Assembly: GCA_028279655.1 (NCBI GenBank)
Contig: JANQNH010000001.1
Location: 17,484-81,483, forward strand
Direction: 5' to 3'
From: Candidatus Nanoarchaeia archaeon
GTDB lineage: Archaea; Nanobdellota; Nanobdellia; Woesearchaeales; JACPBV01
DNA: 64,000 nucleotides
A program made the position numbers and the translations under genes. Numbering within the stretch: position 1 is the stretch's first letter; the number at the start of each line of letters is the position of its first letter. Positions 6,601 to 55,630 of this stretch are shown piece after piece. Under the pieces are notes generated by a model. That model worked only from the letters and a program-made list of their open reading frames with translations. It did no database searches and had not been told where the DNA came from.

Positions 6601-6618
6601 TTTATAATTTAGAAAAAT

Positions 6619-7248
6619 CTATGATTTTTCTAACCCCTTAAAAGCACTGTTATCTCTGCTTTTAGGGATTTTTTTGTTTTTTGATTCGAATACTATTTTT
6701 AGCTCATGGTATATTCCATTAATCTTCTCTTGGTTTCTTCCCAACTTCTTGTTTGCCTCTGCAACTATTGTTTTTAGATAGCCTTCTTCTATCAGCATAT
6801 TGCCTTCTCTTGCAATTATAGTCTCCATAGCTTCTGTACCTATGATCTCCAGCATTATCCTCTTGTTAATGTTTATTATTCCTGCTCTTTTTATCCCTAT
6901 GTCTCTTACTGTTTTCAGCAGTTTTTCTGCAGCTTCTAAATGCCTGCAACAAACATGGATTATTATTGATTCCTGCCTGAGCCATATATCATTATTAGGG
7001 ATATGTTCTAGGCTTTGCCTTATAGCTTCAAACTCGGCTTTATTATGCTCTGCAAACTTAAACCTTGCGTCTTGTTTATTTTCTGTCTTCTTTTCTATCA
7101 ACAGGATCCTTCCAGAACAGGAGGAGGTCGTGTAATAGTCTTTGTGAGAATTGATAAGTTCGATCAAAGGCCTTATATCTTCATCAATGGACTGTTTATT
7201 GGACTTGTCAATCTTTGCGAGGCAGTTTTTCTTCTCGTTGTCGAACAT
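6619..7248 (-). CDS. taw3: tRNA wybutosine-derivative biosynthesis protein Taw3/TYW3-like methyltransferase
   Basis: TTSSCSGRI motif characteristic of the TYW3 family. About 200 aa. Confidence 0.5.
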   Translation of the reverse strand: MFDNEKKNCLAKIDKSNKQSIDEDIRPLIELINSHKDYYTTSSCSGRILLIEKKTENKQDARFKFAEHNKAEFEAIRQSLEHIPNNDIWLRQESIIIHVCCRHLEAAEKLLKTVRDIGIKRAGIININKRIMLEIIGTEAMETIIAREGNMLIEEGYLKTIVAEANKKLGRNQEKINGIYHELKIVFESKNKKIPKSRDNSAFKGLEKS

Positions 7249-7315
7249 GATGTAGGGAATTTTACAATGTATTTAATTTTTACTATAGAATTGTGTCCAT
7301 AATTGGGAAAAAAGG

Positions 7316-7945
7316 TTAAGCAGCAACGTACATGGTTTTTGGAAAATACTCCTTAAGCTTTATTATTGGATTATTATGCAATTGAGGTAATCTTTCTTTT
7401 ATGTATCTGTTTAGAACTTTTCCCATATCAAAGGCGTATAGTTGATTAGGCATGTCTTTTATGGATACAATAGTCTTTGAGCCTGCATCGTGAGTCAGGT
7501 CGCTCTTCTTTATTGTGTTCCACTCTGCATGATTTTTGATCACAGCTTCATATATGAATACAGATCCTTTCTTGAAAATAGTACCAGGTATTTTTTTATA
7601 AAAAACTGCATTTCTGGTGATTATCTCTGCAGCTTCTTTGTCAGTCATCTCTTCTTCAAGCTCCCTTGCAAGGCCTTCAAGAGGGCTTTCTCCTTTTTTG
7701 ATCATGCCTCCCACCAGCTTTATCTTTCCTGCATGCTCTTTTGCGAAGTAATCTTCTGGCGTAATCTCCATATAGAATTCTGTCTCTTCTCCATTATCAT
7801 TCCTTATTATGACAATAGCTGCGTCTAACGTATCATCCGGATCCTTAGCGTCTGCTATCTCTTCTAATGAGAGTTCTGATTCTCCACTATGACATGCTTC
7901 TGCTTCAGCAGAATCACACGTATCTTCGCTCGCTTCTTCACCCAT
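7316..7945 (-). CDS. Nudix hydrolase with acidic N-terminal extension
   Basis: Nudix box GGMIKKGESPLEGLARELEEEMT (Gx5Ex7REUxEExGU). Confidence 0.7.
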   Translation of the reverse strand: MGEEASEDTCDSAEAEACHSGESELSLEEIADAKDPDDTLDAAIVIIRNDNGEETEFYMEITPEDYFAKEHAGKIKLVGGMIKKGESPLEGLARELEEEMTDKEAAEIITRNAVFYKKIPGTIFKKGSVFIYEAVIKNHAEWNTIKKSDLTHDAGSKTIVSIKDMPNQLYAFDMGKVLNRYIKERLPQLHNNPIIKLKEYFPKTMYVAA

Positions 7946-30169: not shown

Positions 30170-33100
30170 GTGACGTTTACTTTACAGCTCAAGTTTTCTA
30201 AAGATTTATATATTCTAGAGTATTCCTCTATAGTAGTTAAAATGTATTGGGGGGCTTGGAAGGTTGTTTTGTATGTATTCTTATGGATAGTCCTATGTGG
30301 TTTTGTATCTGCTGTGAATGTTGAGATATATGATTGTGATGATTTGCAGAATATGAACCAGAACCTAAGCGGAAGCTACGAACTAGCTAATGATATAGAT
30401 TGCTCAGCAACAAGAACATGGGGTGAGGGGAAAGGCTTTAATCCTATCGGTAATCTTTCAGAAAGGTTTACTGGTTATTTTGATGGAAAAAATCATCTAA
30501 TCACCGGGTTATATATGAATAGAAGCGAAAGTTATATTGGGTTATTTGGATATGTCCAACATGCAACAATAAAGAATGTTGGTTTTATTGATGTTGCGAT
30601 CTATGCAGACCCGAGTTCGGGTGATGATATCGGGGCATTGATCGGTCGTGCTGAATGGGTAAATGTTACTAACTCCTATTCTTCTGGTCTTGTAAAAGGA
30701 AGAAGCAATGTAGGAGGTTTGATTGGTTCCCTGTATGATTATGAAGTAAGAAATTCTCACTCTAATGCAACTGTTATTGGGTCATATATGTATGTTGGTG
30801 GGTTGGTAGGTTCATTTACAGGAAGCATCATTGATTCTTATGCTATAGGAACCGTAGATTCACCATATTATGCTGCTGGTCTGATCGGAAAGGCAGGAAA
30901 AGGAAATTCTGGAAATAATCTAGTGTATAATTGCTCTGCTGCAGGTGATGTATCTAGAAGATACTATAATTGCAGCCATCATTGTGGTGGTTTGATAGGA
31001 ACTAGCGAAGAGATCATGGTTGAGAAATCCTATGCAACAGGGGATGTGAATGCTAAGCCTGATCAGGCCTATATGGGCGGTCTAATCGCTCTTGCATCTA
31101 AGACCAACATATCTCAGTCCTATGCAATAGGTGATGTTATTGGTGACTCTTTCGTTGGAGGTTTGGTTGGAAGCCTCCAAGGGAGTTATGCTAATGAAAC
31201 CCTTAAGGATTCTTATGCAACCGGTAATATATATACTACTGGAGGAAACGGCCTTGTAGGCGGCCTTGTGGGGCAACTCCATAACACTAATGTGATCAAT
31301 TCTTATGCCACTGGAACAGTAAATGCTAGAAGTGGGGGTGTAGGCGGCCTCATCGGTACTATCAGCAACTATTCAGTGCAACCTGTGTTGATAAACTCGT
31401 ATTCTACTGGATATGTTGGCGGTGATGATGTTGGAGGGTTGATAGGAAGGGTTGACAGCAATTTCAGCAGAATTACTAACGTTTATTATTATGGTAATGT
31501 AAGTGATTGCTGCGGTCTAGGGTCATGTATTGATTGTACTAGGGAAGTATCATCTGATGTTTTTTACGGTAATGAACATGATGTTTATGTTTTATCACCT
31601 TTATGGGATTTTATTCATATATGGCAGAACCATTCAGATGATTACCCTACGTTGAGGTTGGAAAAGCCATTGGATGTTGACTCTTTATTAGAGAAATATG
31701 CTCCTGTTCTTTATCTCCATCCAGACGAAGAGTTTTTCCCTAAGAGTATTTATAGTATGCTGAATGAGAGCGATCTTATGCTTGGTAATAGGTCCATTGA
31801 TGTTAGCAGGCCTGTTTCTCAAGATAATCTGGATGGAAAAGAAAACGGTTCCTATCTGGATATGCAGGATGCCAGTCCTGGCTTTTTCCCATCAGTTCCA
31901 AACTCAAGCAGGTTTGATAGGTATGAGAATACTGTATATGGCAGAGTGTTTGAGCCTGATGATGAGCACATCGTATTGCAGTATTGGTTCTTTTATCCTT
32001 ATAATCATTTTAGGGGAGGTCATGAAGGGGACTGGGAGATGATACAGATAATATTAAACAAAACCGATGAAAAACCATTAACATCTACTTATTCCTATCA
32101 TTATGATGGAAGAACATATAATTGGAGTGATATAAATAAGGTTGATTCTACACATCCAAAGGTTTTTGTCGCAGAGGGTGGGCATGCGAGTTATAAAGAT
32201 CCAGTAGTTATCTGGCTTCCAGGATACCTTTTACTTGAGTCAGTTAGTGAAGAGAACAATAGTATAGTGTATTATTGCAATAATACAGATACATCCCAGT
32301 TTGTTAATAATCGTTCAACACAATATAGATTAAATTCTATTCTGAATGCTACCGAATGGGCGCATTTTAATGGTAGGTGGGGAGAATCAAAAAATAAATC
32401 TTCTATATATAATGGTCCAAGCAGCCCTGCAAATCTTAGATACGGAAATCAAGCATTTAGATGGAACGATCCAATCGGCTTTGCAAATAATCCCTCCCCA
32501 GATTCAACCAGTGCAGCAACGGGAAGCCCTGTAAATCTTCATGCTTATGATTCACAAGGTAGGCATGTAGGTTTAAGTAGTTCAGGTGATATTGAAGCAG
32601 AGATTCCTGGCGTTTATATGTATATTCCTTCTGATGATGAAAAAGAGGTTATCGTTATATTAGATTCAGAAGACCTAACCTTTGAGATAGAAGCAACAGA
32701 CCAAGGAGAGTTTGATTTTTCATTGAATACTCAGAATGATGGTAACTATATCAATCTACAGTATGAAGATGTACAGATTAATAAGAATACTAGAGCAACA
32801 ATGCAATTTACCAATACCAATCCAAATTTTATTATGGGAATAGATGTCAATGGAGATGGTATAACAGATACTACCTTAAGTCCAAATAATGTAGAGATAT
32901 CTGGAAATTATTCAAATAATGAAACAGATTTTGATAATGACAGTATTGCAGACTCTATTGATAATTGTATAAACACATCTAATCCAGATCAAAGAGATTG
33001 GGATAATGATAGTGTAGGAGATGTTTGTGATGTTGAATCAATTAATATAACTTTAGTTCCGGGTTGGAATCTAATATCTATACCTTTAATTGCGAATAAT

Positions 33101-33514
33101 AATTCTATTCCTTCTTTAATTCCTGGTTATTTAAAAGCATTTACTTATTTACAAGGATCCTTGATCGAATTAAATGATGGATCACATGTCAATACAACAT
33201 GGGGAATGTGGGTTGAGATGTTGAATAATAACACAATAACAATAAATGGGACATTACCAAGAAATCCTTTGTTTATGATGAAACAAGGATGGAATTTAAT
33301 TGGTTATCCTAGCTTGATTCAAAAAGAAGTTAATAAGACTTTTAATGTAAGTCAAATAGAATCTGTTTTTATGTATAATGCTTCTAATACTTTGTGGAAA
33401 TCATACAATCCTTTGAATCCTCTCAATACTTTAGAAAGTATGAAATATGGCTATGGCTATTTAGTTAAAGTTAACGATACTATGAATTGGACTTTTAATG
33501 GAGAGTTTAAATGA
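30170..33514 (+). CDS. Giant surface protein with GLUG-motif repeats, Vps62/DUF946-like domain, TSP3-like repeat and two C-terminal GWNLI modules. True start possibly the Met at 30242.
   Basis: Signal anchor VVLYVFLWIVLCGFVSA. Repeated GGLIG/GGLVG. YAPVLYLHPDEEFFP...GGHEGDWEMIQI...VFVAEGGHASY. DNDSIADSIDNCINTSNPDQRDWDNDSVGDVCD. Confidence 0.7.
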   Translation: MTFTLQLKFSKDLYILEYSSIVVKMYWGAWKVVLYVFLWIVLCGFVSAVNVEIYDCDDLQNMNQNLSGSYELANDIDCSATRTWGEGKGFNPIGNLSERFTGYFDGKNHLITGLYMNRSESYIGLFGYVQHATIKNVGFIDVAIYADPSSGDDIGALIGRAEWVNVTNSYSSGLVKGRSNVGGLIGSLYDYEVRNSHSNATVIGSYMYVGGLVGSFTGSIIDSYAIGTVDSPYYAAGLIGKAGKGNSGNNLVYNCSAAGDVSRRYYNCSHHCGGLIGTSEEIMVEKSYATGDVNAKPDQAYMGGLIALASKTNISQSYAIGDVIGDSFVGGLVGSLQGSYANETLKDSYATGNIYTTGGNGLVGGLVGQLHNTNVINSYATGTVNARSGGVGGLIGTISNYSVQPVLINSYSTGYVGGDDVGGLIGRVDSNFSRITNVYYYGNVSDCCGLGSCIDCTREVSSDVFYGNEHDVYVLSPLWDFIHIWQNHSDDYPTLRLEKPLDVDSLLEKYAPVLYLHPDEEFFPKSIYSMLNESDLMLGNRSIDVSRPVSQDNLDGKENGSYLDMQDASPGFFPSVPNSSRFDRYENTVYGRVFEPDDEHIVLQYWFFYPYNHFRGGHEGDWEMIQIILNKTDEKPLTSTYSYHYDGRTYNWSDINKVDSTHPKVFVAEGGHASYKDPVVIWLPGYLLLESVSEENNSIVYYCNNTDTSQFVNNRSTQYRLNSILNATEWAHFNGRWGESKNKSSIYNGPSSPANLRYGNQAFRWNDPIGFANNPSPDSTSAATGSPVNLHAYDSQGRHVGLSSSGDIEAEIPGVYMYIPSDDEKEVIVILDSEDLTFEIEATDQGEFDFSLNTQNDGNYINLQYEDVQINKNTRATMQFTNTNPNFIMGIDVNGDGITDTTLSPNNVEISGNYSNNETDFDNDSIADSIDNCINTSNPDQRDWDNDSVGDVCDVESINITLVPGWNLISIPLIANNNSIPSLIPGYLKAFTYLQGSLIELNDGSHVNTTWGMWVEMLNNNTITINGTLPRNPLFMMKQGWNLIGYPSLIQKEVNKTFNVSQIESVFMYNASNTLWKSYNPLNPLNTLESMKYGYGYLVKVNDTMNWTFNGEFK

Positions 33515-43994: not shown

Positions 43995-44633
43995 ATGGCA
44001 GCAGACATAACAGGAGAGCTGAATTCTAGAGACCTTAAGGAATTTGGGAAGGACTTCGGAGAGGTAATGAGGGTATACTCTGGGATAAATAAAGAGTATG
44101 CTATGCCTGGGAAGGAGACTGACAGATATATCGATAGGTTTAGAGACGGGCTTAAAAAGTTTAACAAGAAGTATAAGAACCTGGTTATTAATCTTAGGGC
44201 AACAACAGAGAAGCTGAACCTGAGTATTTTTATAAAAGATGGGGGCGTTAAGGAGGTCTTTGCTAATGTTGCTTCTAAGCTAAACGGCCTTAAGGCTGTT
44301 GGGCTGAAGGACTTTGGAGAGGTTAAGGTTGAGGAACCAGAGTTCTCTGACGTTATCGAAAAAGTTAAGGATAGATTATTCATCTCCTATGTTGAGCAGT
44401 CAGAATCTTCGGTTTATCTGGAGCAGCGGAAGGATATGGTAGAGCTGCATGCTGATGAAGATATTGGGAATCCTAGTTCTCCTGGGTTTAAGATCCTTGG
44501 TTATTATGCAGTTAAGGATATGGGGAAATGTGACGTATATAGTATTTTGTCTGGGATAGGATTTATGGAGAGGCCTATCTTGGATAAGGTTAGAAGTATG
44601 CTGAAGAAGTTCAATCCGAGGATTGGAGAATGA
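43995..44633 (+). CDS. Hypothetical protein, ATGA-coupled to the downstream antiporter
   Basis: ORF only. Confidence 0.45.
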   Translation: MAADITGELNSRDLKEFGKDFGEVMRVYSGINKEYAMPGKETDRYIDRFRDGLKKFNKKYKNLVINLRATTEKLNLSIFIKDGGVKEVFANVASKLNGLKAVGLKDFGEVKVEEPEFSDVIEKVKDRLFISYVEQSESSVYLEQRKDMVELHADEDIGNPSSPGFKILGYYAVKDMGKCDVYSILSGIGFMERPILDKVRSMLKKFNPRIGE

Positions 44634-45652
44634 TCCCTTTATTTTTTGTTCTTATCGGAATAGCAGGACTTTATTTTGGGGCAGATTATGTTGTTGAGAG
44701 CGCGAAGAACATCGCTGAGAAGCTTAAAATCTCCCATACTCTTGTTGGGCTTACTATAATCTCCATAGGAACATCCATCCCTGAGATAATGACTAACTTA
44801 GTTAGTGGGCTTAAGATTAGGCAGGGGATAGATGCTTCTGGTATCGCTGTTGGGACTAATATCGGTTCTGACGTTACGCAGATCACTTTTATCCTAGGAC
44901 TTACTGCCTTGTTTGGCACGATGTATGCTTCAAAGAAGCTGTTTAGGAGGGATGGTCCCATGGTTTTGTTTTCCATAATAGCTGTCTTTATTGCAGGGAT
45001 TACAGGCTTTGTAGTTGGGTTTTGGGAGGGCCTGGTAATGTTGCTCATATATTTTGCATATCTTTATTTTACCAGCGAGCACGAAAGGGTGATTGGAAAG
45101 ATTTATGATAAATTGACTGACTGGAGCAAGATTGATAAGCGAAGATACATAAGGAGTGTTCTGGAAAGGGCCTTCAAAAGGGGGTATATTGCCGATGCTG
45201 TACTTATGACTTTGGGGATGATCATATTGGTTTTTGCTTCTGACCTGGTGGTTGGGAGTGCCCTGGAGCTTACAGAGGTCTGGGGAGTTGCACAGAGTTT
45301 TGTTGGGGTGATGGTGGTTGGTGTTGGCACTGGATTGCCTGAGCTTTCAACTGCTATCAGGGCAGCATTCAAGAATGCAGGCGGTATCTCTCTAGGAACT
45401 CTGATCGGAAGCAATATCACAGATCCCATGTTCGCTCTTCCTGTAGGGGCTATGGCTGCAGGAGTTGGACTGAACTTTGACAGGAATCTTCTTTTGTTTG
45501 ATCTCCCCTTTTGGTTTATTGTAACGATCATAGCTCTGACATTCTTTGCAGTTAATAAGAAAGTAGGAAAGGAGAATAAGGTTCATGGTTCGGTGTTGAT
45601 CATGCTATATATACTATTTGTGTTCCTTAAGATCAGATTCTTCCTGCATTAA
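44630..45652 (+). CDS. CaCA-family Na+/Ca2+ exchanger (YrbG-like)
   Basis: Two alpha-repeats: IGTSIPEIMTNL and VGVGTGLPELSTAI. Confidence 0.8.
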   Translation: MIPLFFVLIGIAGLYFGADYVVESAKNIAEKLKISHTLVGLTIISIGTSIPEIMTNLVSGLKIRQGIDASGIAVGTNIGSDVTQITFILGLTALFGTMYASKKLFRRDGPMVLFSIIAVFIAGITGFVVGFWEGLVMLLIYFAYLYFTSEHERVIGKIYDKLTDWSKIDKRRYIRSVLERAFKRGYIADAVLMTLGMIILVFASDLVVGSALELTEVWGVAQSFVGVMVVGVGTGLPELSTAIRAAFKNAGGISLGTLIGSNITDPMFALPVGAMAAGVGLNFDRNLLLFDLPFWFIVTIIALTFFAVNKKVGKENKVHGSVLIMLYILFVFLKIRFFLH

Positions 45653-45771: not shown

Positions 45772-46845
45772 ATGAACATCGGAATACCAAAAGAAACAAA
45801 GATGGGAGAGTTTAGGGTATCTCTGATACCAGATCATGTTAGATTATTGACTAAGGCTGGTCATATGGTTTTTGTTGAGAAGGATGCTGGTAAGAGGTGC
45901 AAGTTCTCCAACAGGGATTATGAGAAAGCAGGTGCTGTAATCGTTGATGATGTTTATGATTGTGAGATGATTGTCAGGGTAAAGGAGCCTCCACTGGCTA
46001 CAATAAAGAAGAACCAGGTAATAATGGGTTATCTGCATATAGAGAAAGGTCAAAACCTGGTATTATTGAACAAATTCCTTGATCAGAACTCTACAACTTA
46101 TGCTTATGAAGAGATAAGGGACGATAAGAGCAATAGATTGGTAAATCTTGGAGTAGAAGCAGGCATAGTTGGCATGTATGAAGGATTACGTTTGTATGGA
46201 AAAACCCTTGAGAAGAATGGGGGGATGAACAGGTTTAAGAAACTGAAGCCTATAAAGACCTATTTCTGTATCGAGGATGTCTATAAGGCGCTTAAGGAAG
46301 CCCATGTCCATAATAATGTCAATGTATATATATTTGGGAAAGGAAGGGTAAGTACTGGAGCACAGAAGGTCCTTTCTTATACAGATATCAAACCGCAGGT
46401 CCTATATAGAGACAGGACATCTTATGCAGAGGAATTTTTGCCAAAGGCAGACATCATACTTAACGCTGTTGACTGGTATCCTGATGAGCCCAGGATAATA
46501 ACAAAGAATATGCTTAAGCTGATGAAGAGATCTGCAGTGATTGTTGATATATCCTGCGATGAGAACGGTTCTATAGAAAGCTGCATACCAACAACATGGC
46601 AGAAGCCCATCTATGTTTTTAACGGAATCACCCATTTCTGTGTTGATAACCTTCCTTCTGCTGTCCCTAGAGATTCTTCAATCCATCTGAGTTCTATGAT
46701 AATACCTCATGTCCTTAAGGTTGCTAATGGCGAAGAGCTTGCTACCGGCCTTATGACAAAGAACGGTATCTTTGAGTATGCTAAGAATAATGAGCATTCA
46801 GAGATCTTTGAGGAGATCCTGGCTCCTGTCCAGGATAGCGCTTGA
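45772..46845 (+). CDS. AlaDH/PNT-N-domain family NAD(P)-dependent dehydrogenase (saccharopine dehydrogenase / carboxyethyl-ornithine synthase-like)
   Basis: N-terminus MNIGIPKETKMGEFRVSLIPDHVRLLTKAGHMVFVEKDAG. Dinucleotide-binding VYIFGKGRVSTGAQ. Confidence 0.6.
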   Translation: MNIGIPKETKMGEFRVSLIPDHVRLLTKAGHMVFVEKDAGKRCKFSNRDYEKAGAVIVDDVYDCEMIVRVKEPPLATIKKNQVIMGYLHIEKGQNLVLLNKFLDQNSTTYAYEEIRDDKSNRLVNLGVEAGIVGMYEGLRLYGKTLEKNGGMNRFKKLKPIKTYFCIEDVYKALKEAHVHNNVNVYIFGKGRVSTGAQKVLSYTDIKPQVLYRDRTSYAEEFLPKADIILNAVDWYPDEPRIITKNMLKLMKRSAVIVDISCDENGSIESCIPTTWQKPIYVFNGITHFCVDNLPSAVPRDSSIHLSSMIIPHVLKVANGEELATGLMTKNGIFEYAKNNEHSEIFEEILAPVQDSA

Positions 46846-46946: not shown

Positions 46947-47687
46947 ATGGCTAAAGGAAATGCTAAAGAAAAAGCAGCACCCCATTTAGTAAATGCTGAG
47001 GAAGAGGTAGGCTCTACTCCAGTAAATGCTAAGGGGGAAGGAGCACGTATTCTAATTGTAGATAATGAAAGTAAATATATGGCGGACTTGAAGACGACTG
47101 TTGAAGCTCATGCTGAAGCAAATGCTAATGGAAAAGTCAAGGTTGATAAAGTTCATGTTAAGGATGCTATAGGTAAACTAAAAGATGAGGCGCCTTATGA
47201 TGCGGTTATATTATCTGGAAGTTTTAAAAGAAGATATGATAATGAAGATGTCCAGAATGTTATTAAATTTGTTGATGATTACAATAAAGGCAAGAATGCT
47301 CCTGACAAAAAAATTCCTGATCAAAAGATAGATCTATATGGTGCTTGTCTGGGGCATCAGGCTTTGATCCATTATCATGGTAAGGGACAAGCTGAATTTG
47401 TTGAACTAGGGAAATATATCAAAGGGGATAAGGACATAACCCTTAAAGATAAGAGTATGGTAAAATCCCATAAACATCATAAGCACGCTTTTAAAAGTGC
47501 CCCTAATCTAGAGATAATAGCAACTAGTTCAGTAGAGGATTCTGGAGGTACATCTCATGATATAGTTGAAGCTGTAGAACATAAAGATATGCCATACTCT
47601 TCTTCTCAGGGTCATGCCTCAAGACCCGGACATGCTCAAGATATGCTGTATAAGATGTTGCTTAAGGTTTACCAGAAAGCAGCTTAA
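46947..47687 (+). CDS. Class-I glutamine amidotransferase-like (GATase1 / peptidase C26) protein
   Basis: Nucleophile elbow LYGACLGHQAL (G-x-C-x-G-x-Q). His/Glu near C-terminus. Confidence 0.55.
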   Translation: MAKGNAKEKAAPHLVNAEEEVGSTPVNAKGEGARILIVDNESKYMADLKTTVEAHAEANANGKVKVDKVHVKDAIGKLKDEAPYDAVILSGSFKRRYDNEDVQNVIKFVDDYNKGKNAPDKKIPDQKIDLYGACLGHQALIHYHGKGQAEFVELGKYIKGDKDITLKDKSMVKSHKHHKHAFKSAPNLEIIATSSVEDSGGTSHDIVEAVEHKDMPYSSSQGHASRPGHAQDMLYKMLLKVYQKAA

Positions 47688-49318
47688 ACCTCTTTTACCA
47701 TCTTAACTGTAAAATGCCTGAATCCCATCTTGTCGTATAGTTTTATTGCAGCTTTGTTGTCCATGTGTATCTCTAATGATACATGAGGCACCTTATTTGA
47801 CTTAAGCCATTCTAATGCGCTCTTTACAAGATTCTCTGCTACTCCTTTTTTCCTGTGTTCCTTGTCAACAAATAGGTTGCTGATGTGGCCTTTTCCTTCT
47901 TTGTGATACCTTGAGATCCTCAGAGGGGTAAAGAATTTTGCAAGGATAGCCCCCACTATCTTGTTTCTATCTTCTGCTACAAACAGGATCCTGTCTGGTT
48001 TTGTAAGATCAAACTGAAGGTATTCCCTGTAGTAATGTTTGCTTTTGGTAATCGGTTTAAGGGTATTTGAGTATTTCAGCTCCTCTTTTTTTGACATAAG
48101 CCTTAGCTTGAAGAGCTCGTCAAAGTCATCTATTGTCGCTTTCCTTATGGCTATGTTATCTCCATAGTTATCTATAATGTCTTTTATGAAGTATCTGCTT
48201 AGGTTGTATCTTCTCACTCTTGGGAATCCTGGAAATGCATTGATCTCTATGAACTCTGCCTTCTTCTTGTCAGCACAGAGCATCATGTCAACCCCTCCAA
48301 AGTTCAGGCCTAATGCTTTTATCGCCTTAATGGCGCTTTGTTTGGCAAATTCCAGCTGTTTTTTTGGAAGGGTTTTTTCAAAGCTTAGTTTCTCTCCTAT
48401 GGCGCCCTGGGATATGTTTGTTGTAACTGCTTTTTCGTCATTACTCCTTCCATAGGTGTAAAGGACTTTGTCCTTAAAGACATACATCCTAAGGTCAAAC
48501 TTTCTTCCTTTTATCAGCAACGGGTCAATGGCATCTTCTATTATGATGTCCTTCTTTAGGATCTCACTCAGGAATCTGGTCTTGTTTGTTATGTTAATAA
48601 AGGTCCAGCCATAGTCTGATTTTCTGCTTAGGATCTTTCCATTTCTGAACCTGAAATTCGTCATCCACCTGCCTTTCTCAAGATAGGTTATGCCTTTTCC
48701 CATGGAACCATATCTGACCTTAATGAAAAGTTTGCGTCCATTTTCCAGCAGCTTTAAGATATCCTTTACCTTTCTTGTATTGTATGTTTTTGGAATCAGG
48801 ACCCCTGCTTTTGCAACCTTCTTCTTGGTCATCTCCTTATCCCTGTCGGTTGCCAGATTCTTTGGGTGATTGATATAGGTTATCTTATTGTTTTTGTAAA
48901 AATTCTTCAGCTTACTATCTATCTCCTTCCAGAACTTAATGAATTTGGTGTAGAAGCTCTTGTTTCCATAGATGCCCTTGTATTTCTTTGGTTCAATATA
49001 TTTATCCCAATACTCAAAAGGGAAGCACAGGAATATTATGATCTCTTTTGTCTTTATCTCTGGGAGTTTTTGGTCTATTACAGACCAGTAATTTGTGGCT
49101 TTTACCTGGATGTTGCTTCCTCTGAAGAACTTTCTCTGCTTGTAGACCTTCTTGAAGGTGTCGAAGTCCTTCCAGTCTCCTATTGCCAATAGTGTTTTCA
49201 TATTTTTCTCAAAATTATTGATACTTATAAAGTTTACTGTGTTAGTCCTTCTGATTGATATGTAAAAAGAAAAACCACCACCAATGGGCTCAAATACGGT
49301 CGTGCTTCGCACGCCCAA
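47684..49318 (-). CDS. YheC/YheD(TTL)-type ATP-grasp ligase fused to a C-terminal GNAT acetyltransferase. Real start may be the internal Met (MKTLLAIGDW).
   Basis: LFIKVRYGSMGKGITYL and RKFDLRMYVFKDKVLYTYGRSNDEKAVTTNISQGAIGE (YheCD signature). GNAT motif A FVDKEHRKKGVAENLV. Confidence 0.6.
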   Translation of the reverse strand: MGVRSTTVFEPIGGGFSFYISIRRTNTVNFISINNFEKNMKTLLAIGDWKDFDTFKKVYKQRKFFRGSNIQVKATNYWSVIDQKLPEIKTKEIIIFLCFPFEYWDKYIEPKKYKGIYGNKSFYTKFIKFWKEIDSKLKNFYKNNKITYINHPKNLATDRDKEMTKKKVAKAGVLIPKTYNTRKVKDILKLLENGRKLFIKVRYGSMGKGITYLEKGRWMTNFRFRNGKILSRKSDYGWTFINITNKTRFLSEILKKDIIIEDAIDPLLIKGRKFDLRMYVFKDKVLYTYGRSNDEKAVTTNISQGAIGEKLSFEKTLPKKQLEFAKQSAIKAIKALGLNFGGVDMMLCADKKKAEFIEINAFPGFPRVRRYNLSRYFIKDIIDNYGDNIAIRKATIDDFDELFKLRLMSKKEELKYSNTLKPITKSKHYYREYLQFDLTKPDRILFVAEDRNKIVGAILAKFFTPLRISRYHKEGKGHISNLFVDKEHRKKGVAENLVKSALEWLKSNKVPHVSLEIHMDNKAAIKLYDKMGFRHFTVKMVKEV

Positions 49319-49456
49319 CCCACAAAGGAAAAAACCATACGTTGTATGCTTTTTCCCTCTACACTCGTGTTTTCACCTATGGTTGTTTTTATGAAATATA
49401 TTTTTTATACTACAAAGTTTTAAATAATAGTGATTTTTGATTGTTAATGGGAGAAA

Positions 49457-50473
49457 ATGAGAATAGCAATAACTTGCAGCATAAAACCTGAAAATGTTCG
49501 TGAAGAGGAGAAGGAGAAGTATGCTGAATTTGATTCTAAGGAAACCATTGATGATCTTTCAGAAGCTATCAAATCAAATGCGCATGAAGTTGAGATTATC
49601 GATGTAAGAGAAGATATAAAGGATGTCCTGATGTCTAAGAAGGACAATATTGATCTTGTTTTTAATGTTGCAGAGGGAATTGAAGGGGAGGAGAGAGAAG
49701 CACTGGTTCCCGGAGTATGCGAGGAATTAGGCATTCCTTTTTCCGGCGCTGGTTTCAAGACCTCTGTGATTGTGCTAAATAAGGCAAAGGCAAAGGATGT
49801 CCTGATGAAGAATGATATCAAAACTCCCAGATATAAGGTTTTTGAGACTGGAAATGAAGCATTTGATCTGAGATTTCCCATACTCATCAAGCCTTTGATC
49901 GAAGGAAGCTCTAGGGGTGTATTTAATGAGAACCTAGTTAGTAATGTTGAGGACCTTAGGAGAATTGTAAGAAAAATTATCGAGGAATATAAACAGCCAG
50001 CCATAGGGGAGGAATTTCTTAGCGGCAGGGAATTTACTGTTTCTGTTATTGGCTATAAGAACCCAATAGTGCTTCCGATTGTTGAGATAAAGTTTGATCA
50101 TCTTCCACCTGATATCAACCCCATGGATAGTTATGAAGCAAAGTGGATATATGACAGTCCTGAATATAATGAGAAGCATAATGTTGATCCTGTCCAATGT
50201 CCTGCTATTCTTGATGATAGGCTGAGACAGGAGATAGAGGATATAGTTTTGCAGACCTATAAGGTATTAGATTGCAAGGATTGGGCAAGGATTGATGTTA
50301 GACTGGATAAGGAAGGAGTTCCAAATATCTTGGAGGTTAATACCCCTCCTGGTTTTATGAAGGATCCTAAAGAAAATTCAAGGTTGCCAAAGGCTGCCTA
50401 TGCTAATGGATGGAGTTATGAGAAGCTTATCGGAGAGGTTTTGAAGAGCGCTATTGGGAGGTGGAATCTGTGA
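49457..50473 (+). CDS. D-alanine-D-alanine-ligase-like ATP-grasp enzyme, paralogue 1
   Basis: Ddl N-domain and ATP-grasp. AEGIEGEEREALVPGVCEELGIPFSGAG. ILIKPLIEGSSRGV. EVNTPPG. Confidence 0.7.
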   Translation: MRIAITCSIKPENVREEEKEKYAEFDSKETIDDLSEAIKSNAHEVEIIDVREDIKDVLMSKKDNIDLVFNVAEGIEGEEREALVPGVCEELGIPFSGAGFKTSVIVLNKAKAKDVLMKNDIKTPRYKVFETGNEAFDLRFPILIKPLIEGSSRGVFNENLVSNVEDLRRIVRKIIEEYKQPAIGEEFLSGREFTVSVIGYKNPIVLPIVEIKFDHLPPDINPMDSYEAKWIYDSPEYNEKHNVDPVQCPAILDDRLRQEIEDIVLQTYKVLDCKDWARIDVRLDKEGVPNILEVNTPPGFMKDPKENSRLPKAAYANGWSYEKLIGEVLKSAIGRWNL

Positions 50474-51468
50474 AAATTGCTGTGATATATACCAAGAGAG
50501 AAGAGATGGCAGAATCATACCATGAGGATTGGGAAGGCAGGGATACTAATGATGATGCTGAGTCTGTTATGAAGGCTTTAAAGGAACTAGGGCATGAGGT
50601 TAAGGTATATTATGTTGATCTTGACCTGTTCGAGAGCCTTAAGAGGGATAAGAAAGACATAGATATGGTTTTTAACATGTGTGATGACGGTTTTTATTCT
50701 GATCCTGAGTTAGAGCCACACGTGCCTGCCATGCTGGATATTCTGGAGATACCCTATACCGGGGGAGATTATCTAACATTGGCTTTGACCTTAAGGAAGG
50801 CTATGGTAAAGAAGATACTTATCTATCATGATCTTCCTACGCCAAGGTTTAAACTCTTTGAGACCGGAGATGAATCTTTTGATATGGGCTTTCCATTGAT
50901 TGTTAAGCCTGCTCTGGAGGACGCTTCTATCGGGATTAAAGATGAGTCTGTTGTATATGATGAAGAGAAATTGAGAGAAAGGGTCAAGTACGTTATCAAG
51001 GAGTATGAGCAGCCTGCGCTTGTTGAGGAGTTTATCGATGGAAGGGAGTTTAATGTTGGAGTGATAGGTGATAATGAGATACTTCCACTTTCTGAGATAA
51101 CCTTTGATGGTCTGCCTGCCGATAAGCCCAAGATTGTGAATTATGATGCTAAGTGGAAGGAGGATTCTATCGATTATAAGGAAACCAGAAGGAGCTGTCC
51201 TGCAAAGGTTGATGAGATATTAGGAAATAAGCTTAGGGAACTTGCCTTGAAAGCGGGTTCTTTGTTTGGATGCAGGGATTACTTTAGGGTAGATTTTAGG
51301 GTTAGGGGGGATGAACCTTTTATCCTTGAGGTTAATCAGAGCCCGGATATCTCAGAGGATGCAGGTCTTTTTGCTATGGCCCAGGCAAAAGGTTATAGCT
51401 ATAAGGATCTGATCGACAAGATTATCACCAATGTTATGAAAAGAGAAAAGGATGATAGTCCAGAATAA
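50461..51468 (+). CDS. D-alanine-D-alanine-ligase-like ATP-grasp enzyme, paralogue 2
   Basis: Same architecture as paralogue 1. LIVKPALEDASIGI. LEVNQSPD. 13-nt overlap with paralogue 1. Confidence 0.7.
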   Translation: MESVKIAVIYTKREEMAESYHEDWEGRDTNDDAESVMKALKELGHEVKVYYVDLDLFESLKRDKKDIDMVFNMCDDGFYSDPELEPHVPAMLDILEIPYTGGDYLTLALTLRKAMVKKILIYHDLPTPRFKLFETGDESFDMGFPLIVKPALEDASIGIKDESVVYDEEKLRERVKYVIKEYEQPALVEEFIDGREFNVGVIGDNEILPLSEITFDGLPADKPKIVNYDAKWKEDSIDYKETRRSCPAKVDEILGNKLRELALKAGSLFGCRDYFRVDFRVRGDEPFILEVNQSPDISEDAGLFAMAQAKGYSYKDLIDKIITNVMKREKDDSPE

Positions 51469-52786
51469 GCTTGAGAAAAGAGGTTTTTCTGTAAATCTAT
51501 TTAAAGATGCAAGTATAGAATACCAGGAGGATGTCTGGGAGAATATTTCTGAGGATTATAAGAAGGCGATTATGGATAACTTAGTCTATCTGAAGCTATC
51601 CCCTTATTCTATGTTCCAGGAAATGCATTTTGATTTCCCTAAGCCTTTTCTTTCTGAATTGGGGGACAAGGGGGTTATCGGGGATATTCCAAGAATCGCA
51701 TATGAAGATAAGGTTTCTGCTAAAGAGATGATTGAGAGGTTTAGGAATAAACATGTTGATTTTTGTGAAGGTAGCTCTGCATCCATGAGTGGTATAGAGA
51801 CTGAAGATACCCCCTTGATCGGGATTTCTTTTGGGAAGGATAGTCTTTTGTCTTATGCAGTTGCTAAGGAATTAGGACTAGATCCTGAGCTTGTTATGGT
51901 ACAGGATTTCTGGGATAAGGAGGCGGACTTTAAGTTTGACATAATAGACAGATTTGAGGATGAGTTTGATGAGGAGATATACATAGTTTATGATTACATG
52001 GATGATGTATCAGCCTATAAGCGGATAAATAAGCTTGGTTCAGAGGGGGTTGTTGGTGCTAATGCGATAAATTCCTATATTGCCATGCTTCTTCCATTGG
52101 CAGTGAGGCATAGGGCAGATACGCTTGTCTTTGGGAATGAACAAAATTTTAATGATTACTTTTTAAATGAAGAGGGATTTAAGGTTTATCCTTCCTATGA
52201 ACAGTCGAGCGACTGGATGGAGGAACAGAACAAGGCCTTGGATGAGTTTACAGGAGGAAATGTTAAGGTCACTAGTTTTGTTGAGCCCCTGTATAATATT
52301 GCTGAGGTGAAGGTATTGTTCAGCAGGTATCAGTCTATAGCAAGATATCAGATGTCCTGTGATCTTTCATACTCTAAAGGGGGGAGAGGGATGTGGTGCT
52401 ATAACTGTCCTATGTGCGGCAAGGCCTTCCTATACCTAAAGGCCATAGGTGTTGATCCCAAGGTCATTGGTTTCAATAAAAACTTTTTTGACAAGGAATT
52501 TGAAAGACACTATCCTTTGTTCACCCCGCCTACCCGCATCTATGAGAAGCCTGCTGCTGTAAGGGATGAGCAGCTTTTTGGTTTTTACCTTGCTTTTAAG
52601 TCGGATTGCAAGGGTTATCTTATTGACCAGTTTGCGGATAGGTTTTTGGATGAAGCTAAAGAACGCGAGGATGAGTTATTCAATAAATTCTTCAAGGTGC
52701 ATGATTCTGTGTCTATGGATGGGAGGATCAAGGCAGGGATCAATTCTATCTATAGAGAGGAGCTGGATAAGGAGAGCTTAGGATGA
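51452..52786 (+). CDS. PP-loop (adenine-nucleotide alpha-hydrolase superfamily) ATP-pyrophosphatase-like protein with CxxC...CxxC zinc ribbon. Candidate amidoligase.
   Basis: LIGISFGKDSLLSYAVAKELG (variant of SGGxDS). MWCYNCPMCG. 17-nt overlap with the upstream gene. Confidence 0.5.
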   Translation: MIVQNKLEKRGFSVNLFKDASIEYQEDVWENISEDYKKAIMDNLVYLKLSPYSMFQEMHFDFPKPFLSELGDKGVIGDIPRIAYEDKVSAKEMIERFRNKHVDFCEGSSASMSGIETEDTPLIGISFGKDSLLSYAVAKELGLDPELVMVQDFWDKEADFKFDIIDRFEDEFDEEIYIVYDYMDDVSAYKRINKLGSEGVVGANAINSYIAMLLPLAVRHRADTLVFGNEQNFNDYFLNEEGFKVYPSYEQSSDWMEEQNKALDEFTGGNVKVTSFVEPLYNIAEVKVLFSRYQSIARYQMSCDLSYSKGGRGMWCYNCPMCGKAFLYLKAIGVDPKVIGFNKNFFDKEFERHYPLFTPPTRIYEKPAAVRDEQLFGFYLAFKSDCKGYLIDQFADRFLDEAKEREDELFNKFFKVHDSVSMDGRIKAGINSIYREELDKESLG

Positions 52787-54153
52787 GATGGGAAGATGCT
52801 ATCGGTCCATTAAAGGAAGGATGGAATGAAGATATTGATGAGGATGACGGGAATTACTATGAAGATATAGTCAACAGCGTCTTAAAAAAGAAGGATTTGT
52901 TGCTTGAGAGCGCTTCTAGATTTGGCACCCCCCAATATATCCTTGATGAGGATGTCCTTAGGGAGAAGGCGTCTGGTTTTATGCAGAACTTCAGGAATTT
53001 TATACCTAACTCCAGGTTTTTCTATGCTTTCAAGTCTAACGATCTTCCTTACATATGTGGTTTTTTGAGGGATCTTGGGTTTAATGCTGATGTTGCTGGT
53101 TTGTTTGAGCTGCAACTGGCTTTGAAACTGAATTTTAAGCGTATAATCTTTACAGGGCCTGCGAAGAGTACGGAAGAGCTTTTGTTAGCTATCGAAAATA
53201 GAAACAGGGTGGTAATAAATGTGGACAACAAGGATGAGCTTGATAGGGTGATAGGTTTGGTGGATGATGGCAGAGTTAGGATCAGCGTTAGAGTCAATCC
53301 GGATAGTTCGGTGATGAAGACCTGGAGCAAGTTTGGGGTTGACTTCGATGAATTGAAGGAGGTTATCTCAAGGGCCAGGACTAGCAGTAAGGTCTCACTG
53401 GTCGGTCTACATTTTCATTCTTCATGGAACGATACTCCAGAACGTTACTGTAAGAATATTAAACTGATCGGAGAATTCCTGAAGGAAGACCTATCTCAGT
53501 TTGAGTTCCTTGATATCGGTGGAGGGATATATCCAGAGGACCAGGCAACCCTGACAAAGTTCAGCCATAACTATGTCTTAAGAGAGGTTGTTTCAGAGGT
53601 ACAGGAAGAGCATCTTGATTTTGACTTAAGTGAGTTTGTTGTTGATGATGTCGATTCTCTGGAGGTGTTTGGGAAAGAGATTTCGAGTGCGTTAGAGAAA
53701 TATATATTTCCCTTCAATAAAGATATGGATATCTATCTTGAGCCTGGAAGGTATGTCTCTAACAATTCAACCCATATTCTGCTGAAGGTACTCTGTGAAA
53801 AAGGAGAGAACGTGATTGTTGATGGCGGCATGAACCTTATAGGAAGCCTGGATTTTTCACAATATCTTTTTGCACCTATTGTCAACCTTTCTAATCCTTC
53901 CTTGGAATTAAGAAAGAAAACAATCTATGGGAGTCTATGTAAAGCGGATGACCTTTGGGGTTATTCATTTTTTGGAGAGGGTTGCAAGAAAGATGATGTT
54001 GTGATCGTATTGATGCAGGGAAGCTATACATTCTCAAGGGCGTGGAGATTCATTAAAGAGACTGCCCCATACGTTGTTATATCCAACGGTAAATTGAGAT
54101 TAGCAAAAGAGAAAGAAAAATTTTCTGATAGGTATTCTGGCTGCAAGTTCTGA
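52783..54153 (+). CDS. Fold-III PLP-dependent decarboxylase (Orn/DAP/Arg decarboxylase family)
   Basis: FGTPQYILDED. PLP-Lys FYAFKSN. LDIGGGI. YLEPGRY. C-terminal YGSLCKADD. Confidence 0.75.
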   Translation: MRWEDAIGPLKEGWNEDIDEDDGNYYEDIVNSVLKKKDLLLESASRFGTPQYILDEDVLREKASGFMQNFRNFIPNSRFFYAFKSNDLPYICGFLRDLGFNADVAGLFELQLALKLNFKRIIFTGPAKSTEELLLAIENRNRVVINVDNKDELDRVIGLVDDGRVRISVRVNPDSSVMKTWSKFGVDFDELKEVISRARTSSKVSLVGLHFHSSWNDTPERYCKNIKLIGEFLKEDLSQFEFLDIGGGIYPEDQATLTKFSHNYVLREVVSEVQEEHLDFDLSEFVVDDVDSLEVFGKEISSALEKYIFPFNKDMDIYLEPGRYVSNNSTHILLKVLCEKGENVIVDGGMNLIGSLDFSQYLFAPIVNLSNPSLELRKKTIYGSLCKADDLWGYSFFGEGCKKDDVVIVLMQGSYTFSRAWRFIKETAPYVVISNGKLRLAKEKEKFSDRYSGCKF

Positions 54154-54508
54154 AAAAGATTTTTTCTGAGAATTAAAGAATAATTTCTAGATTATAAAAT
54201 TGTAATTATTTTTCTTAAAAAAATAAAAATTTTGTAAAATATTAAAAAACTTTTCTCGTTTTTTTCGACGAGAAATTAAAAAAATAAAAACTTTTTTTAA
54301 AAAAATAAAAAAAAATAAATTTTTTTTTATCCATTTTGTCGACGGTAAATTCAAAAAAGAATAAGCTTTAAATACTACTAATTTCAGTAAAAAATATTAA
54401 AAAAATTAATTTTTTCCAAAAAAAGCTGGTGAAATAAGAGATGATTACCAAAAATTCATTGTTTCTTCTCCATTTTATCCATGATTATAAACTGAGAGAA
54501 GAATTTTT
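54154..54508. promoter_or_regulatory. About 355-bp spacer of more than 85% A+T, low complexity, with AAAAATAAAAA iterations and two GTCGAC-containing motifs, upstream of the aminomutase
   Basis: tttttcgacgag at 54262. ttttgtcgacggtaaa at 54334-54349. Confidence 0.35.
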
Positions 54509-55630
54509 TTGAGGTCAACAATGCCAGGACAACAAGAAGAAACATTGATAAAGAAGAAATATGCGAAAGAGATTGAACAGGTTGAATTATGGGAAGAATT
54601 GTTGAGAAAAAGCATTGTTGATGAAGGGCAGCTTGATGCAATCTGCAAAGGAAATATCGATAAAGAGAAGCTGAAGGCTGTAATCAAGAAATACCCGATG
54701 AGGATAAACCCCTATTATCTAAGTCTTGTGAAAAAGAAGGATGATGCAATCTGGAAGCAATGCATCCCTGATGTCCGTGAGCTTGATGATCCTAAGGGTT
54801 TTGAGGACCCCCTTTGCGAAGAAAGGGACAGTCCGGTCCCTGGCTTGACACATAGATATCCAGACAGGGTCCTTCTGCTGGTATGTAACCAATGTGCAAT
54901 GTATTGCAGGTTCTGTACAAGGAAAAGAAAGGTAGGTGATCCTTTCAAACGGATTACAAGGGCCCAAATATTAAGGGGTATCGAATATATAAAAGGACAT
55001 CCTGAGGTAAGGGACGTGCTTTTGTCAGGAGGAGACCCTTTCCTGCTTTCTGATTCTTATCTTGAATGGATACTGAAGGAACTAAGAAGCATACCTCACG
55101 TTGAGATTATTCGTATTGGAACACGAGTACCATGTGCTCTTCCGCATAGGGTAACTCCTGAGTTGTGCAACATGTTAAAGAAGTACCATCCTTTATATGT
55201 AAATATCCATTTTGCTCATCCGGATGAGATAACTGAACTAAGCGAGAGTGCATGCAATATGCTGTCTGATGCAGGTATCCTGTTGAGTAGCCAGACTGTG
55301 TTGCTTAGGGGTGTTAATGATGATCCTAAGGTCATGAAGGACCTTATGCAGAAGCTCCTGAAGATAAGGGTGCGACCATATTATATCTATCAGGCAGATA
55401 TGACTATGGGGATTAACCATTTCAGAACAAAGGTTGAGAAAGGTATAGAGATCATTGAGAAGATCCAGGGATGGACCTCTGGATTGTGCGTCCCTCATTT
55501 TGTTATCGACAGTCCCGGCGGAGGAGGGAAGATACCAATCCTGCCTAATTTTATTGTTTCCAGAGATGATAAGAAGATAGTCCTAAGGAATTATTCCGGG
55601 AAGACATATACTTATGAAGAGCATTGTTGA
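54509..55630 (+). CDS. kamA: KamA-family radical-SAM aminomutase (lysine 2,3-aminomutase-like)
   Basis: CNQCAMYCRFCTRKRK (CxxxCxxC in the KamA context). LLSGGDPF. PLP-Lys region. C-terminal Cys cluster. Confidence 0.8.
   Translation: MRSTMPGQQEETLIKKKYAKEIEQVELWEELLRKSIVDEGQLDAICKGNIDKEKLKAVIKKYPMRINPYYLSLVKKKDDAIWKQCIPDVRELDDPKGFEDPLCEERDSPVPGLTHRYPDRVLLLVCNQCAMYCRFCTRKRKVGDPFKRITRAQILRGIEYIKGHPEVRDVLLSGGDPFLLSDSYLEWILKELRSIPHVEIIRIGTRVPCALPHRVTPELCNMLKKYHPLYVNIHFAHPDEITELSESACNMLSDAGILLSSQTVLLRGVNDDPKVMKDLMQKLLKIRVRPYYIYQADMTMGINHFRTKVEKGIEIIEKIQGWTSGLCVPHFVIDSPGGGGKIPILPNFIVSRDDKKIVLRNYSGKTYTYEEHC

Follow-up and report, generated by a model that had tools for sequence, protein, structure and literature searches.

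Which chemistry does an ATP-grasp ligase perform when it is fused to a GNAT acetyltransferase, and which other genes belong to the same system? The question is raised by one gene in a 64,000-nucleotide (nt) stretch of contig JANQNH010000001.1 from a Candidatus Nanoarchaeia archaeon (assembly GCA_028279655.1), referred to here as the window. The gene lies on the reverse strand and encodes an ATP-grasp domain followed by a GNAT domain. It converges on a gene for a class-I glutamine amidotransferase-like (GATase-like) protein, beyond which lies a gene of the alanine dehydrogenase (AlaDH)/PNT family (Table 1). Comparison across genomes indicates that dehydrogenase, ligase, acetyltransferase, and amidotransferase-like protein form a small conserved module common to DPANN archaea and Omnitrophota-type bacteria. 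We tentatively propose, with a probability of roughly 35%, that the module encodes a small-molecule pathway similar to that of Ngg or of N-acetylaspartylglutamate (NAAG) synthase, in which an amino-acid or opine-type substrate would be N-acetylated, ligated, and possibly amidated.

Conserved gene neighborhood of the ATP-grasp ligase

We compared 68 loci from species-representative genomes and added loci L001-L008 by exact protein look-up. Neighboring genes were found by searching the window proteins against the six-frame open reading frames (ORFs) of all loci and then clustering, and adjacency was counted over 72 non-redundant loci. An AlaDH/PNT-family gene adjoins the ATP-grasp gene in 60 of the 72, in archaea and in bacteria. 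This dehydrogenase, which resembles both AlaDH and lysine-ketoglutarate reductase (LKR) and was missed by the first-pass annotation of the window, is the real conserved partner of the ATP-grasp protein. Among the clustered neighbors of all loci, no further conserved neighbor occurred in more than ~12 loci, and where the dehydrogenase is absent the neighbors are unrelated housekeeping or mobile genes. Full-text literature searches returned no publication on this module.

The module occurs in two arrangements. The DPANN loci encode a dehydrogenase of ~357 amino acids (aa) downstream of, and convergent with, the ATP-grasp gene, and a GNAT is present. The window follows this pattern, with the dehydrogenase gene located 101 nt upstream of the GATase-like gene and on the same strand. 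The Omnitrophota-type bacteria (Omnitrophota, Planctomycetia-labelled metagenome-assembled genomes (MAGs), Margulisiibacteriota, and Ratteibacteria) instead encode a dehydrogenase of ~436 aa immediately upstream of the ATP-grasp gene on the same strand, and the GNAT is absent. A search upstream of the bacterial operons in seven loci detected no riboswitch and one tRNA only.

Over its full length, the bacterial partner is homologous to the LKR domain of human AASS (221.9 bits, E = 1.5e-64, residues 6-432 versus 7-445). The window dehydrogenase scored 178.5 bits against a hidden Markov model (HMM) of these bacterial LKR-like partners and 152.9 bits against the alaDH equivalog TIGR00518, below its cut-off of 391.85. 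The NAD-binding region of the window protein does not align to AlaDH and has the LKR-like sequence GKGRVSTGAQ, and its motifs HIEKGQ and FGKGRVSTGAQ compare with HTIKAQ and TGTGNVSKGAQ in human LKR. Because the alaDH score is below the cut-off, the LKR-like HMM matches, the NAD-binding region is not alignable to AlaDH, and the motifs are of the LKR type, we read the protein as an opine/saccharopine-type or related amino-acid dehydrogenase rather than a standard AlaDH. We note that in phmmer comparisons AlaDH gave it the higher score (130.7 bits, versus 64.8 bits for LKR). The window protein and its homologues P0137-P0218 carry the JGI label "alanine dehydrogenase", which, judging from these matches, is probably a systematic mis-annotation. 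We also considered an analogy to PylBCD, a set of radical-SAM mutase, ATP-grasp, and dehydrogenase, and abandoned it when no PylD model matched the dehydrogenase at E<0.01. The gene that immediately precedes the dehydrogenase gene belongs to the Na+/Ca2+ exchanger family (44630-45652, forward strand) and keeps this position only in L001 and L009.

The fusion protein and its split relatives

The window gene was first described as a fusion of a YheCD/TTL-type ATP-grasp with a C-terminal GNAT, and profile searches bear this out. Within the 544-aa mechanical ORF, the ATP-grasp part matches the Pfam families ATPgrasp_YheCD (61.7 bits, cut-off 26.8, residues 172-365), RimK (38.1 bits, cut-off 21, residues 252-370), and TTL (27.2 bits, cut-off 20.1, residues 139-284), and the C-terminal part matches Acetyltransf_1 (74.4 bits, cut-off 20.7, residues 424-533). 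The TTG at which this ORF begins is probably unused, and the gene probably starts at the ATG at 49201 because all homologues begin with MKTLLAIGD, which corresponds to this ATG. A TATA-like sequence (tttataagta) lies ~25 nt upstream of it. Scans for sigma-70 promoters and terminators gave background levels only; sigma-70 models are unsuited to an archaeon.

The catalytic residues of the ATP-grasp domain are intact, as are those of its relatives. K161 with the GSMGKG loop, E222, D236/R238 (FDLR), D305, E319, and N321 do not vary across 70 homologues, and we take them to correspond to the ATP/Mg2+ and acyl-phosphate motifs of RimK. The GNAT domain contains the acetyl-CoA motif RKKGVA (pattern R/Q-x-x-G-x-G/A) at residues 450-455. 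The AlphaFold2 (AF2) model of the fusion protein, computed from a 70-sequence alignment, has a predicted local distance difference test score (pLDDT) of 89.8 and a predicted template modeling score (pTM) of 0.77.

By its profile matches, the ATP-grasp domain is a member of the YheCD Pfam family that falls within no characterized subfamily. Scores against TIGR00768 (RimK family; 58.3 bits, cut-off 143.4), NF040720 (MptN; 76.5 bits, cut-off 350), and TIGR02144 (LysX; 34 bits, cut-off 275.6) were all below the cut-offs. A Foldseek search of the Protein Data Bank placed it nearest to ArgX/LysX (3vpb, 3vpd, 5k2m), RimK (5zct, 4iwx, 7qys), and the graspetide ligases PsnB and MdnC (E = 1e-13 to 1e-10, target template modeling score 0.6-0.74, identity 13-17%). 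The relation to RimK, MptN, and LysX is thus at the level of the fold only. The GNAT domain scored best against RimI (53.9 bits, with the RimI equivalog cut-off not reached) and N-terminal acetyltransferases, and its best sequence matches were Naa10, Naa30, the archaeal N-terminal acetyltransferase SSO0209, and RimI.

Homologues of the fusion protein come from DPANN archaea of the Woesearchaeota/Nanoarchaeota type. Most of these relatives have the ATP-grasp part as a stand-alone protein of ~350 aa, whose identity to the window protein is 50-78% in the 120 best matches (60-78% across Woesearchaeota). The fusion is unusual, as had been supposed: only 7 of the 120 best homologues carry a fused GNAT (P0001-P0005, P0065, and P0074). 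In ~25 DPANN loci the GNAT is encoded by a gene of its own (~154 aa) immediately after the ATP-grasp gene, and its ATG mostly overlaps the ATP-grasp stop codon as a 4-nt ATGA. True fusions are limited to the window, L001/L002 (80% identity), and L009, together with L003 (48% identity) and P0074. This restriction to two lineages suggests that fusion occurred independently at least twice. With split genes in ~25 DPANN loci and fusions in these two lineages alone, the fusion is best explained as a Rosetta-stone event that united two genes already coupled in translation. It confirms that ligase and acetyltransferase function jointly, and the fused state is not ancestral. An assembly artefact was considered and rejected, as the same fused ORF occurs in independent samples (P0002-P0005, L001, and L009).

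The family is small. An exhaustive profile search of 1.84 billion representative proteins retrieved 65 clusters at E≤1e-30, 265 at E≤1e-10, and 2446 at E≤0.001. Of note, L009, L011-L014, L016, L017, L019, L020, L024, and L027 are labelled "uncultured Methanosarcinales archaeon", yet their genes are 65-79% identical to Woesearchaeota proteins, and L021 has the archaeal gene order but a Planctomycetota label. The taxonomy assigned to these MAGs seems unreliable.

The GATase-like protein

The convergent gene matches Pfam GATase (PF00117; 34.1 bits, cut-off 22.8) and overlaps the fusion gene by 4 nt, as noted in the first-pass annotation. Both stop codons fall in one TTAA, with the GATase-like gene ending in GCT TAA on the forward strand and the fusion gene ending in TTA on the reverse strand. 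The same tail-to-tail 4-nt overlap is seen in L003 and L004. The GATase-like protein retains the nucleophile elbow GACLGHQ (Cys134) and His223. Its AF2 model (pLDDT 81) is nearest in Foldseek to GuaA subunit A, PhzE, PabA/ADC synthase, CTP synthase, FGAM synthetase, and GatD glutaminase units.

Two roles had been suggested for this protein: gamma-glutamyl hydrolase, or supplier of ammonia to a PP-loop enzyme encoded nearby. The first is disfavored, given that the protein is structurally nearest to amidotransferase glutaminase subunits, that the top 50 Foldseek matches include no C26 or gamma-glutamyl hydrolase, and that the window protein does not match Peptidase C26 (PF07722). The second does not agree with the distribution of the gene. 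An HMM built from window-type ORFs detected GATase-like genes directly beside the module in ~15 DPANN loci, some with two or three paralogues, and in three bacterial loci (L056, L073, and L075) where they overlap the 3' end of the ATP-grasp gene; many loci with such genes lack the PP-loop gene. A cluster containing kamA, Ddl-like, and PP-loop genes adjoins the module only in the closest relatives of the window, so the GATase-like gene travels with the ATP-grasp module and not with the PP-loop enzyme.

A direct connection is provided by P0249 (568 aa; L078, 5988-7694), encoded after an LKR-like gene in a bacterial MAG from the Black Sea. Residues 9-352 of this protein are an ATP-grasp and residues 376-566 are GATase-like (138 bits). 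P0249 is a second Rosetta-stone fusion, one that ties the GATase-like protein physically to the ATP-grasp. Its GATase-like domain reads HIGHSHKW versus YICHSHQW, with Gly in place of the nucleophile Cys.

Several further features of these genes were observed. Tandem GATase-like paralogues (two or three) lie beside the module in L013 (11543-13069), L035 (1175-4150), L037 (11304-12746), and L017 (3906-5406). Some of them lack the catalytic Cys (GFTHGSE, YLTLGAQ), and the copies in L017 appear frameshifted. A basic, Ala-rich C-terminal tail is found on many GATase-like proteins of the window type (47640-47687 in the window, and in L004, L009, L013, L016, L018, and L025), with the forms YQKAA, KPAA, KKAA, KEAA, and EKAA. 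We considered a conserved "K-A-A" tail as a substrate of the ligase and downgraded this idea, as closer homologues end in RAK, KAR, RVA, or MAV. The 80%-identical relative L001 has a different GATase-like neighbor (11586-12344) with the sequence GVNAGHQ, without the Cys and with a weak Peptidase_C26 match (22.6 bits) for this non-orthologous copy. The L001 gene is on the same strand as the fusion and not convergent with it; the position beside the fusion has therefore been remodelled in L001.

Comparison with known systems

All domains of the module belong to known superfamilies, and a bifunctional enzyme that combines GNAT and ATP-grasp is already known. Ngg acts both as an acetyltransferase and as a peptide ligase, with an amidotransferase as its partner (PMC8070244). 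Ngg (TIGR03103) and AsnO, which synthesize the osmolyte N-acetylglutaminylglutamine amide, thus resemble the window module in having GNAT and ATP-grasp on one chain and a glutamine amidotransferase partner. TIGR03103 matches both domains of the window fusion weakly, in two stretches totalling 57.5 bits against an equivalog cut-off of 569. The domain order is opposite, GNAT followed by ATP-grasp in Ngg and a C-terminal GNAT in the window fusion (matching profile positions 125-221 of 547), and the ATP-grasp belongs to a different subfamily, the window protein being of the YheCD type. The amidotransferase also differs in type: the Ngg partner is the class-II AsnO with a synthetase domain, whereas the window partner is a bare class-I GATase-like protein. 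The constant LKR/AlaDH-like dehydrogenase partner is found on the window side.

RimK, LysX, and ArgX are the best structural matches and have the Mg/ATP and acyl-phosphate motifs in common with the window ATP-grasp. They differ in their low sequence identity to it and in that the window domain has a distinct and highly conserved N-terminal domain. No S6-like or LysW-like substrate gene is present near the window module. In eukaryotes, NAT8L makes N-acetylaspartate, from which RIMKLA or RIMKLB makes NAAG. The two-step logic is the same, but these enzymes are separate, eukaryotic, and without dehydrogenase or GATase, and the homology is at the superfamily level only.

For the dehydrogenase, the relevant AlaDH/PNT-family proteins are the LKR domain of AASS and fungal Lys1. 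The alignment of the bacterial partner with human LKR runs from end to end. The window protein has the HxxK[AG]Q and GxGxVSxGAQ motifs but is shorter and lacks both the LKR insertion and a saccharopine dehydrogenase (SDH) domain. GatD/MurT and CarA/CarB offer a further likeness, a small class-I GATase-like protein genetically coupled to a ligase that forms an acyl-phosphate, and GatD is among the structural matches. However, MurT is a Mur-type ligase, CarB belongs to another ATP-grasp clade, and several members of the window family have only part of the glutaminase triad or have lost it.

Proposed pathway and alternatives

From the observed domain architecture, intact catalytic motifs, and gene linkage we infer candidate substrates, a product, and an order of steps for the proposed Ngg- or NAAG-synthase-like pathway. 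The core would consist of the LKR/AlaDH-like NAD(P)-dependent dehydrogenase and the RimK/LysX-fold ATP-grasp ligase, to which DPANN add the GNAT and many genomes the GATase-like protein. The dehydrogenase would make or consume an amino-acid or opine-type substrate, possibly by reductive condensation or amination of a 2-oxo acid in lysine or glutamate chemistry. The GNAT would then cap the free amine of the substrate using acetyl-CoA. Finally, the ATP-grasp would activate a carboxylate as an acyl-phosphate and join it to an amine, which would be either that of a second amino acid or ammonia that the GATase-like partner frees from glutamine. Such a pathway would yield an amino-acid conjugate that is N-acetylated and possibly also amidated, and for which a role as a compatible solute is plausible. 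The source records are mostly marine or saline (Black Sea, trench, seep, Tara), and this origin weakly supports an osmolyte role. We favor a small molecule over a protein as the substrate because the linkage to a metabolic dehydrogenase is conserved.

Several observations weigh against this proposal. The family has no characterized member, and the closest structural relatives of the ATP-grasp (ArgX/LysX, RimK, and PsnB/MdnC) all act on proteins or peptides. The GNAT is as similar to RimI and protein N-terminal acetyltransferases as to small-molecule GNATs. Moreover, it is missing from the bacterial versions, and the core chemistry can therefore proceed without acetylation. The scores for Ngg, RimK, and MptN are all far under the family cut-offs. 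The GATase-like partner is optional, and its active site is not uniformly kept. In the window protein the usual His-Pro-Glu reads His-Ala-Ser and the triad Glu is absent, as it also is in L004; L015, L018, and L035c read HPGG, and the close relatives P0123 and P0124 retain HPE. The nucleophile Cys is lost in several paralogues, in the L001 copy, and in the fused P0249 (Cys to Gly). Glutamine hydrolysis is therefore not a universal role of the family, and while ammonia delivery by the window protein is plausible, it cannot be the sole role of these proteins.

An alternative that we regard as possible but doubtful is a protect-modify-deprotect route that handles a diamino acid (lysine or ornithine, for example) in the manner of the LysW/LysX, N-acetyl-glutamate, or Puu pathways. 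The ATP-grasp, the GNAT, or both would mask one amine, the LKR-like dehydrogenase would transform the other, and the GATase-fold protein would deprotect the product or supply nitrogen. The top structural matches of the ATP-grasp, ArgX and LysX, are amino-group-protecting ligases, and the bacterial partner is a bona fide homologue of LKR, which acts on the epsilon-amine of lysine. Saccharopine formation has been proposed to be functionally equivalent to N6-acetylation (PMC2922099). In the window clade, the module also lies beside a diaminopimelate (DAP)-decarboxylase-like gene (lysine-forming) and a lysine 2,3-aminomutase gene (lysine-using), but this adjacency is limited to one small clade. 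Nor is a LysW-like carrier, kinase, reductase, or aminotransferase conserved nearby, and the GATase-like fold is closer to glutaminase subunits than to C26 hydrolases. The similarities to proteins that act on proteins could alternatively reflect a RimK-like and RimI-like pair, in which the ATP-grasp adds amino acids to the C-terminus or a side chain of a protein, perhaps a ribosomal protein or one encoded by the module itself, and the GNAT acetylates an N-terminus. The protein or peptide substrates of the nearest Foldseek matches of the ATP-grasp (RimK, LysX/ArgX, graspetide ligases), the best matches of the GNAT, the very high conservation across Woesearchaeota, and the conserved basic, Ala-rich tail of the GATase-like proteins agree with this explanation. 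We nevertheless judge it improbable: a protein-modifying role would hardly account for the strict linkage, seen in archaea and bacteria alike, to a metabolic dehydrogenase of the LKR/AlaDH type, no small substrate or carrier ORF is conserved among the neighbors, the C-terminal "KAA" varies, and the equivalog cut-offs for RimK and RimI are not reached.

The model put forward in the first-pass annotation appears still less probable. It holds that the fusion couples AblB-like N-acetylation of beta-lysine made by KamA with ligation, and that the GATase serves the PP-loop enzyme. The encoded KamA is a genuine lysine 2,3-aminomutase (501.7 bits against the AblA model and 420 bits versus 2A5H) and retains the equivalents of Asp293 and Asp330 of 2A5H, which we take to be the residues that bind the epsilon-amine of lysine. 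The kamA cluster (49457-55630) contains no separate ablB, and the fusion and the first Ddl-like gene diverge from one promoter region in the window, L001, and L009. However, among ~26 archaeal loci the cluster adjoins the module only in the window, in L001/L002, and, in reduced form, in L009; the module occurs without the kamA, Ddl-like, and PP-loop genes in L003-L008, in ~22 other DPANN loci, and in every bacterial locus. The fusion in L003 is thus not beside kamA, and the pairing recurs only in the closest relatives of the window. The GNAT also has no specific similarity to AblB (the 25 top-scoring NCBIfam models for the domain do not include it), and the GATase-like gene goes with the ATP-grasp module, to which it is fused in L078. 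Finally, a more novel reading may be entertained, as a speculation that we think rather unlikely: the trio of dehydrogenase, ligase, and GATase-like protein, with the GNAT in archaea, would be an unrecognized and horizontally shared pathway of ultra-small, host-dependent prokaryotes (DPANN and Omnitrophota). It would make a new class of N-capped or amidated opine or peptide solutes, or would serve as a nitrogen-assimilation unit analogous but not homologous to glutamine synthetase/glutamate synthase, combining glutamine-dependent reductive amination with ATP-dependent amidation.

Feature coordinates and the neighboring kamA cluster

Table 1. Positions of the module genes, their domains, and the adjoining cluster within the window
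Feature	Position	Strand	Description	Evidence
AlaDH/PNT-family dehydrogenase	45772..46845	+	357 aa, with LKR-type motifs	Pfam AlaDh_PNT_N and AlaDh_PNT_C; HMM; motifs; linkage
GATase-like protein	46947..47687	+	Class-I glutamine-amidotransferase-like, 246 aa; N-terminal ~29 residues predicted disordered	PF00117, AF2, Foldseek
ATP-grasp-GNAT fusion coding sequence	47684..49201	-	505 aa from ATG 49201; mechanical ORF 47684-49318 reaches TTG 49318 (544 aa)	Pfam, NCBIfam, homologue N-termini, AF2, Foldseek
ATP-grasp domain	48167..49201	-	aa 1-345, YheCD/RimK type with its own pre-ATP-grasp N-domain	PF14398, invariant residues
Linker and GNAT acetyltransferase domain	47687..48166	-	aa 346-505	PF00583, RKKGVA
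TTAA	47684..47687	.	Common to both convergent stop codons	Direct sequence reading
Divergent intergenic region	49202..49456	.	Between fusion gene and first Ddl-like gene; TATA-like box upstream of ATG 49201	Sequence
Context cluster outside the conserved module	49457..55630	+	Two Ddl-like ATP-grasp ligases, PP-loop MurL-like protein, DAP/ornithine-decarboxylase-like protein, lysine 2,3-aminomutase	Pfam, NCBIfam

The operon-like kamA cluster looks like a pathway for a peptide that contains beta-lysine and is possibly epimerized. Its PP-loop protein (444 aa) has an SFGKDS motif and a weak match to the MurL epimerase (41.5 bits), and its DAP/ornithine-decarboxylase-like protein is a PLP enzyme. The divergent arrangement of the fusion and Ddl-like genes is retained only in L001 and L009. 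It is possible that this clade uses lysine-derived substrates, which would fit the LKR-like partner. Compared with the window, L001 has an insertion between the two Ddl-like genes (6538-7624) that comprises a HEPN/nucleotidyltransferase (toxin-antitoxin-like) pair and a 330-aa gene of unknown function. Elsewhere in the window are two very large ORFs on the forward strand, at 1459-6600 (1713 aa) and 30170-33514 (1114 aa).

Implications

What is new relative to Ngg is the opposite domain order, the different ATP-grasp subfamily, the different type of amidotransferase, and the constant dehydrogenase partner. The family is small, tight, and spans two domains of life, and two independent Rosetta-stone fusions link its parts. 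Because the metabolism of DPANN and Omnitrophota is minimal, an enzyme set this strongly conserved likely matters for their lifestyle. Identification of the product would correct the widespread "alanine dehydrogenase" annotation and would add a pathway, possibly one for an osmolyte or a nitrogen-handling metabolite, to the sparse metabolic maps of DPANN and Omnitrophota.

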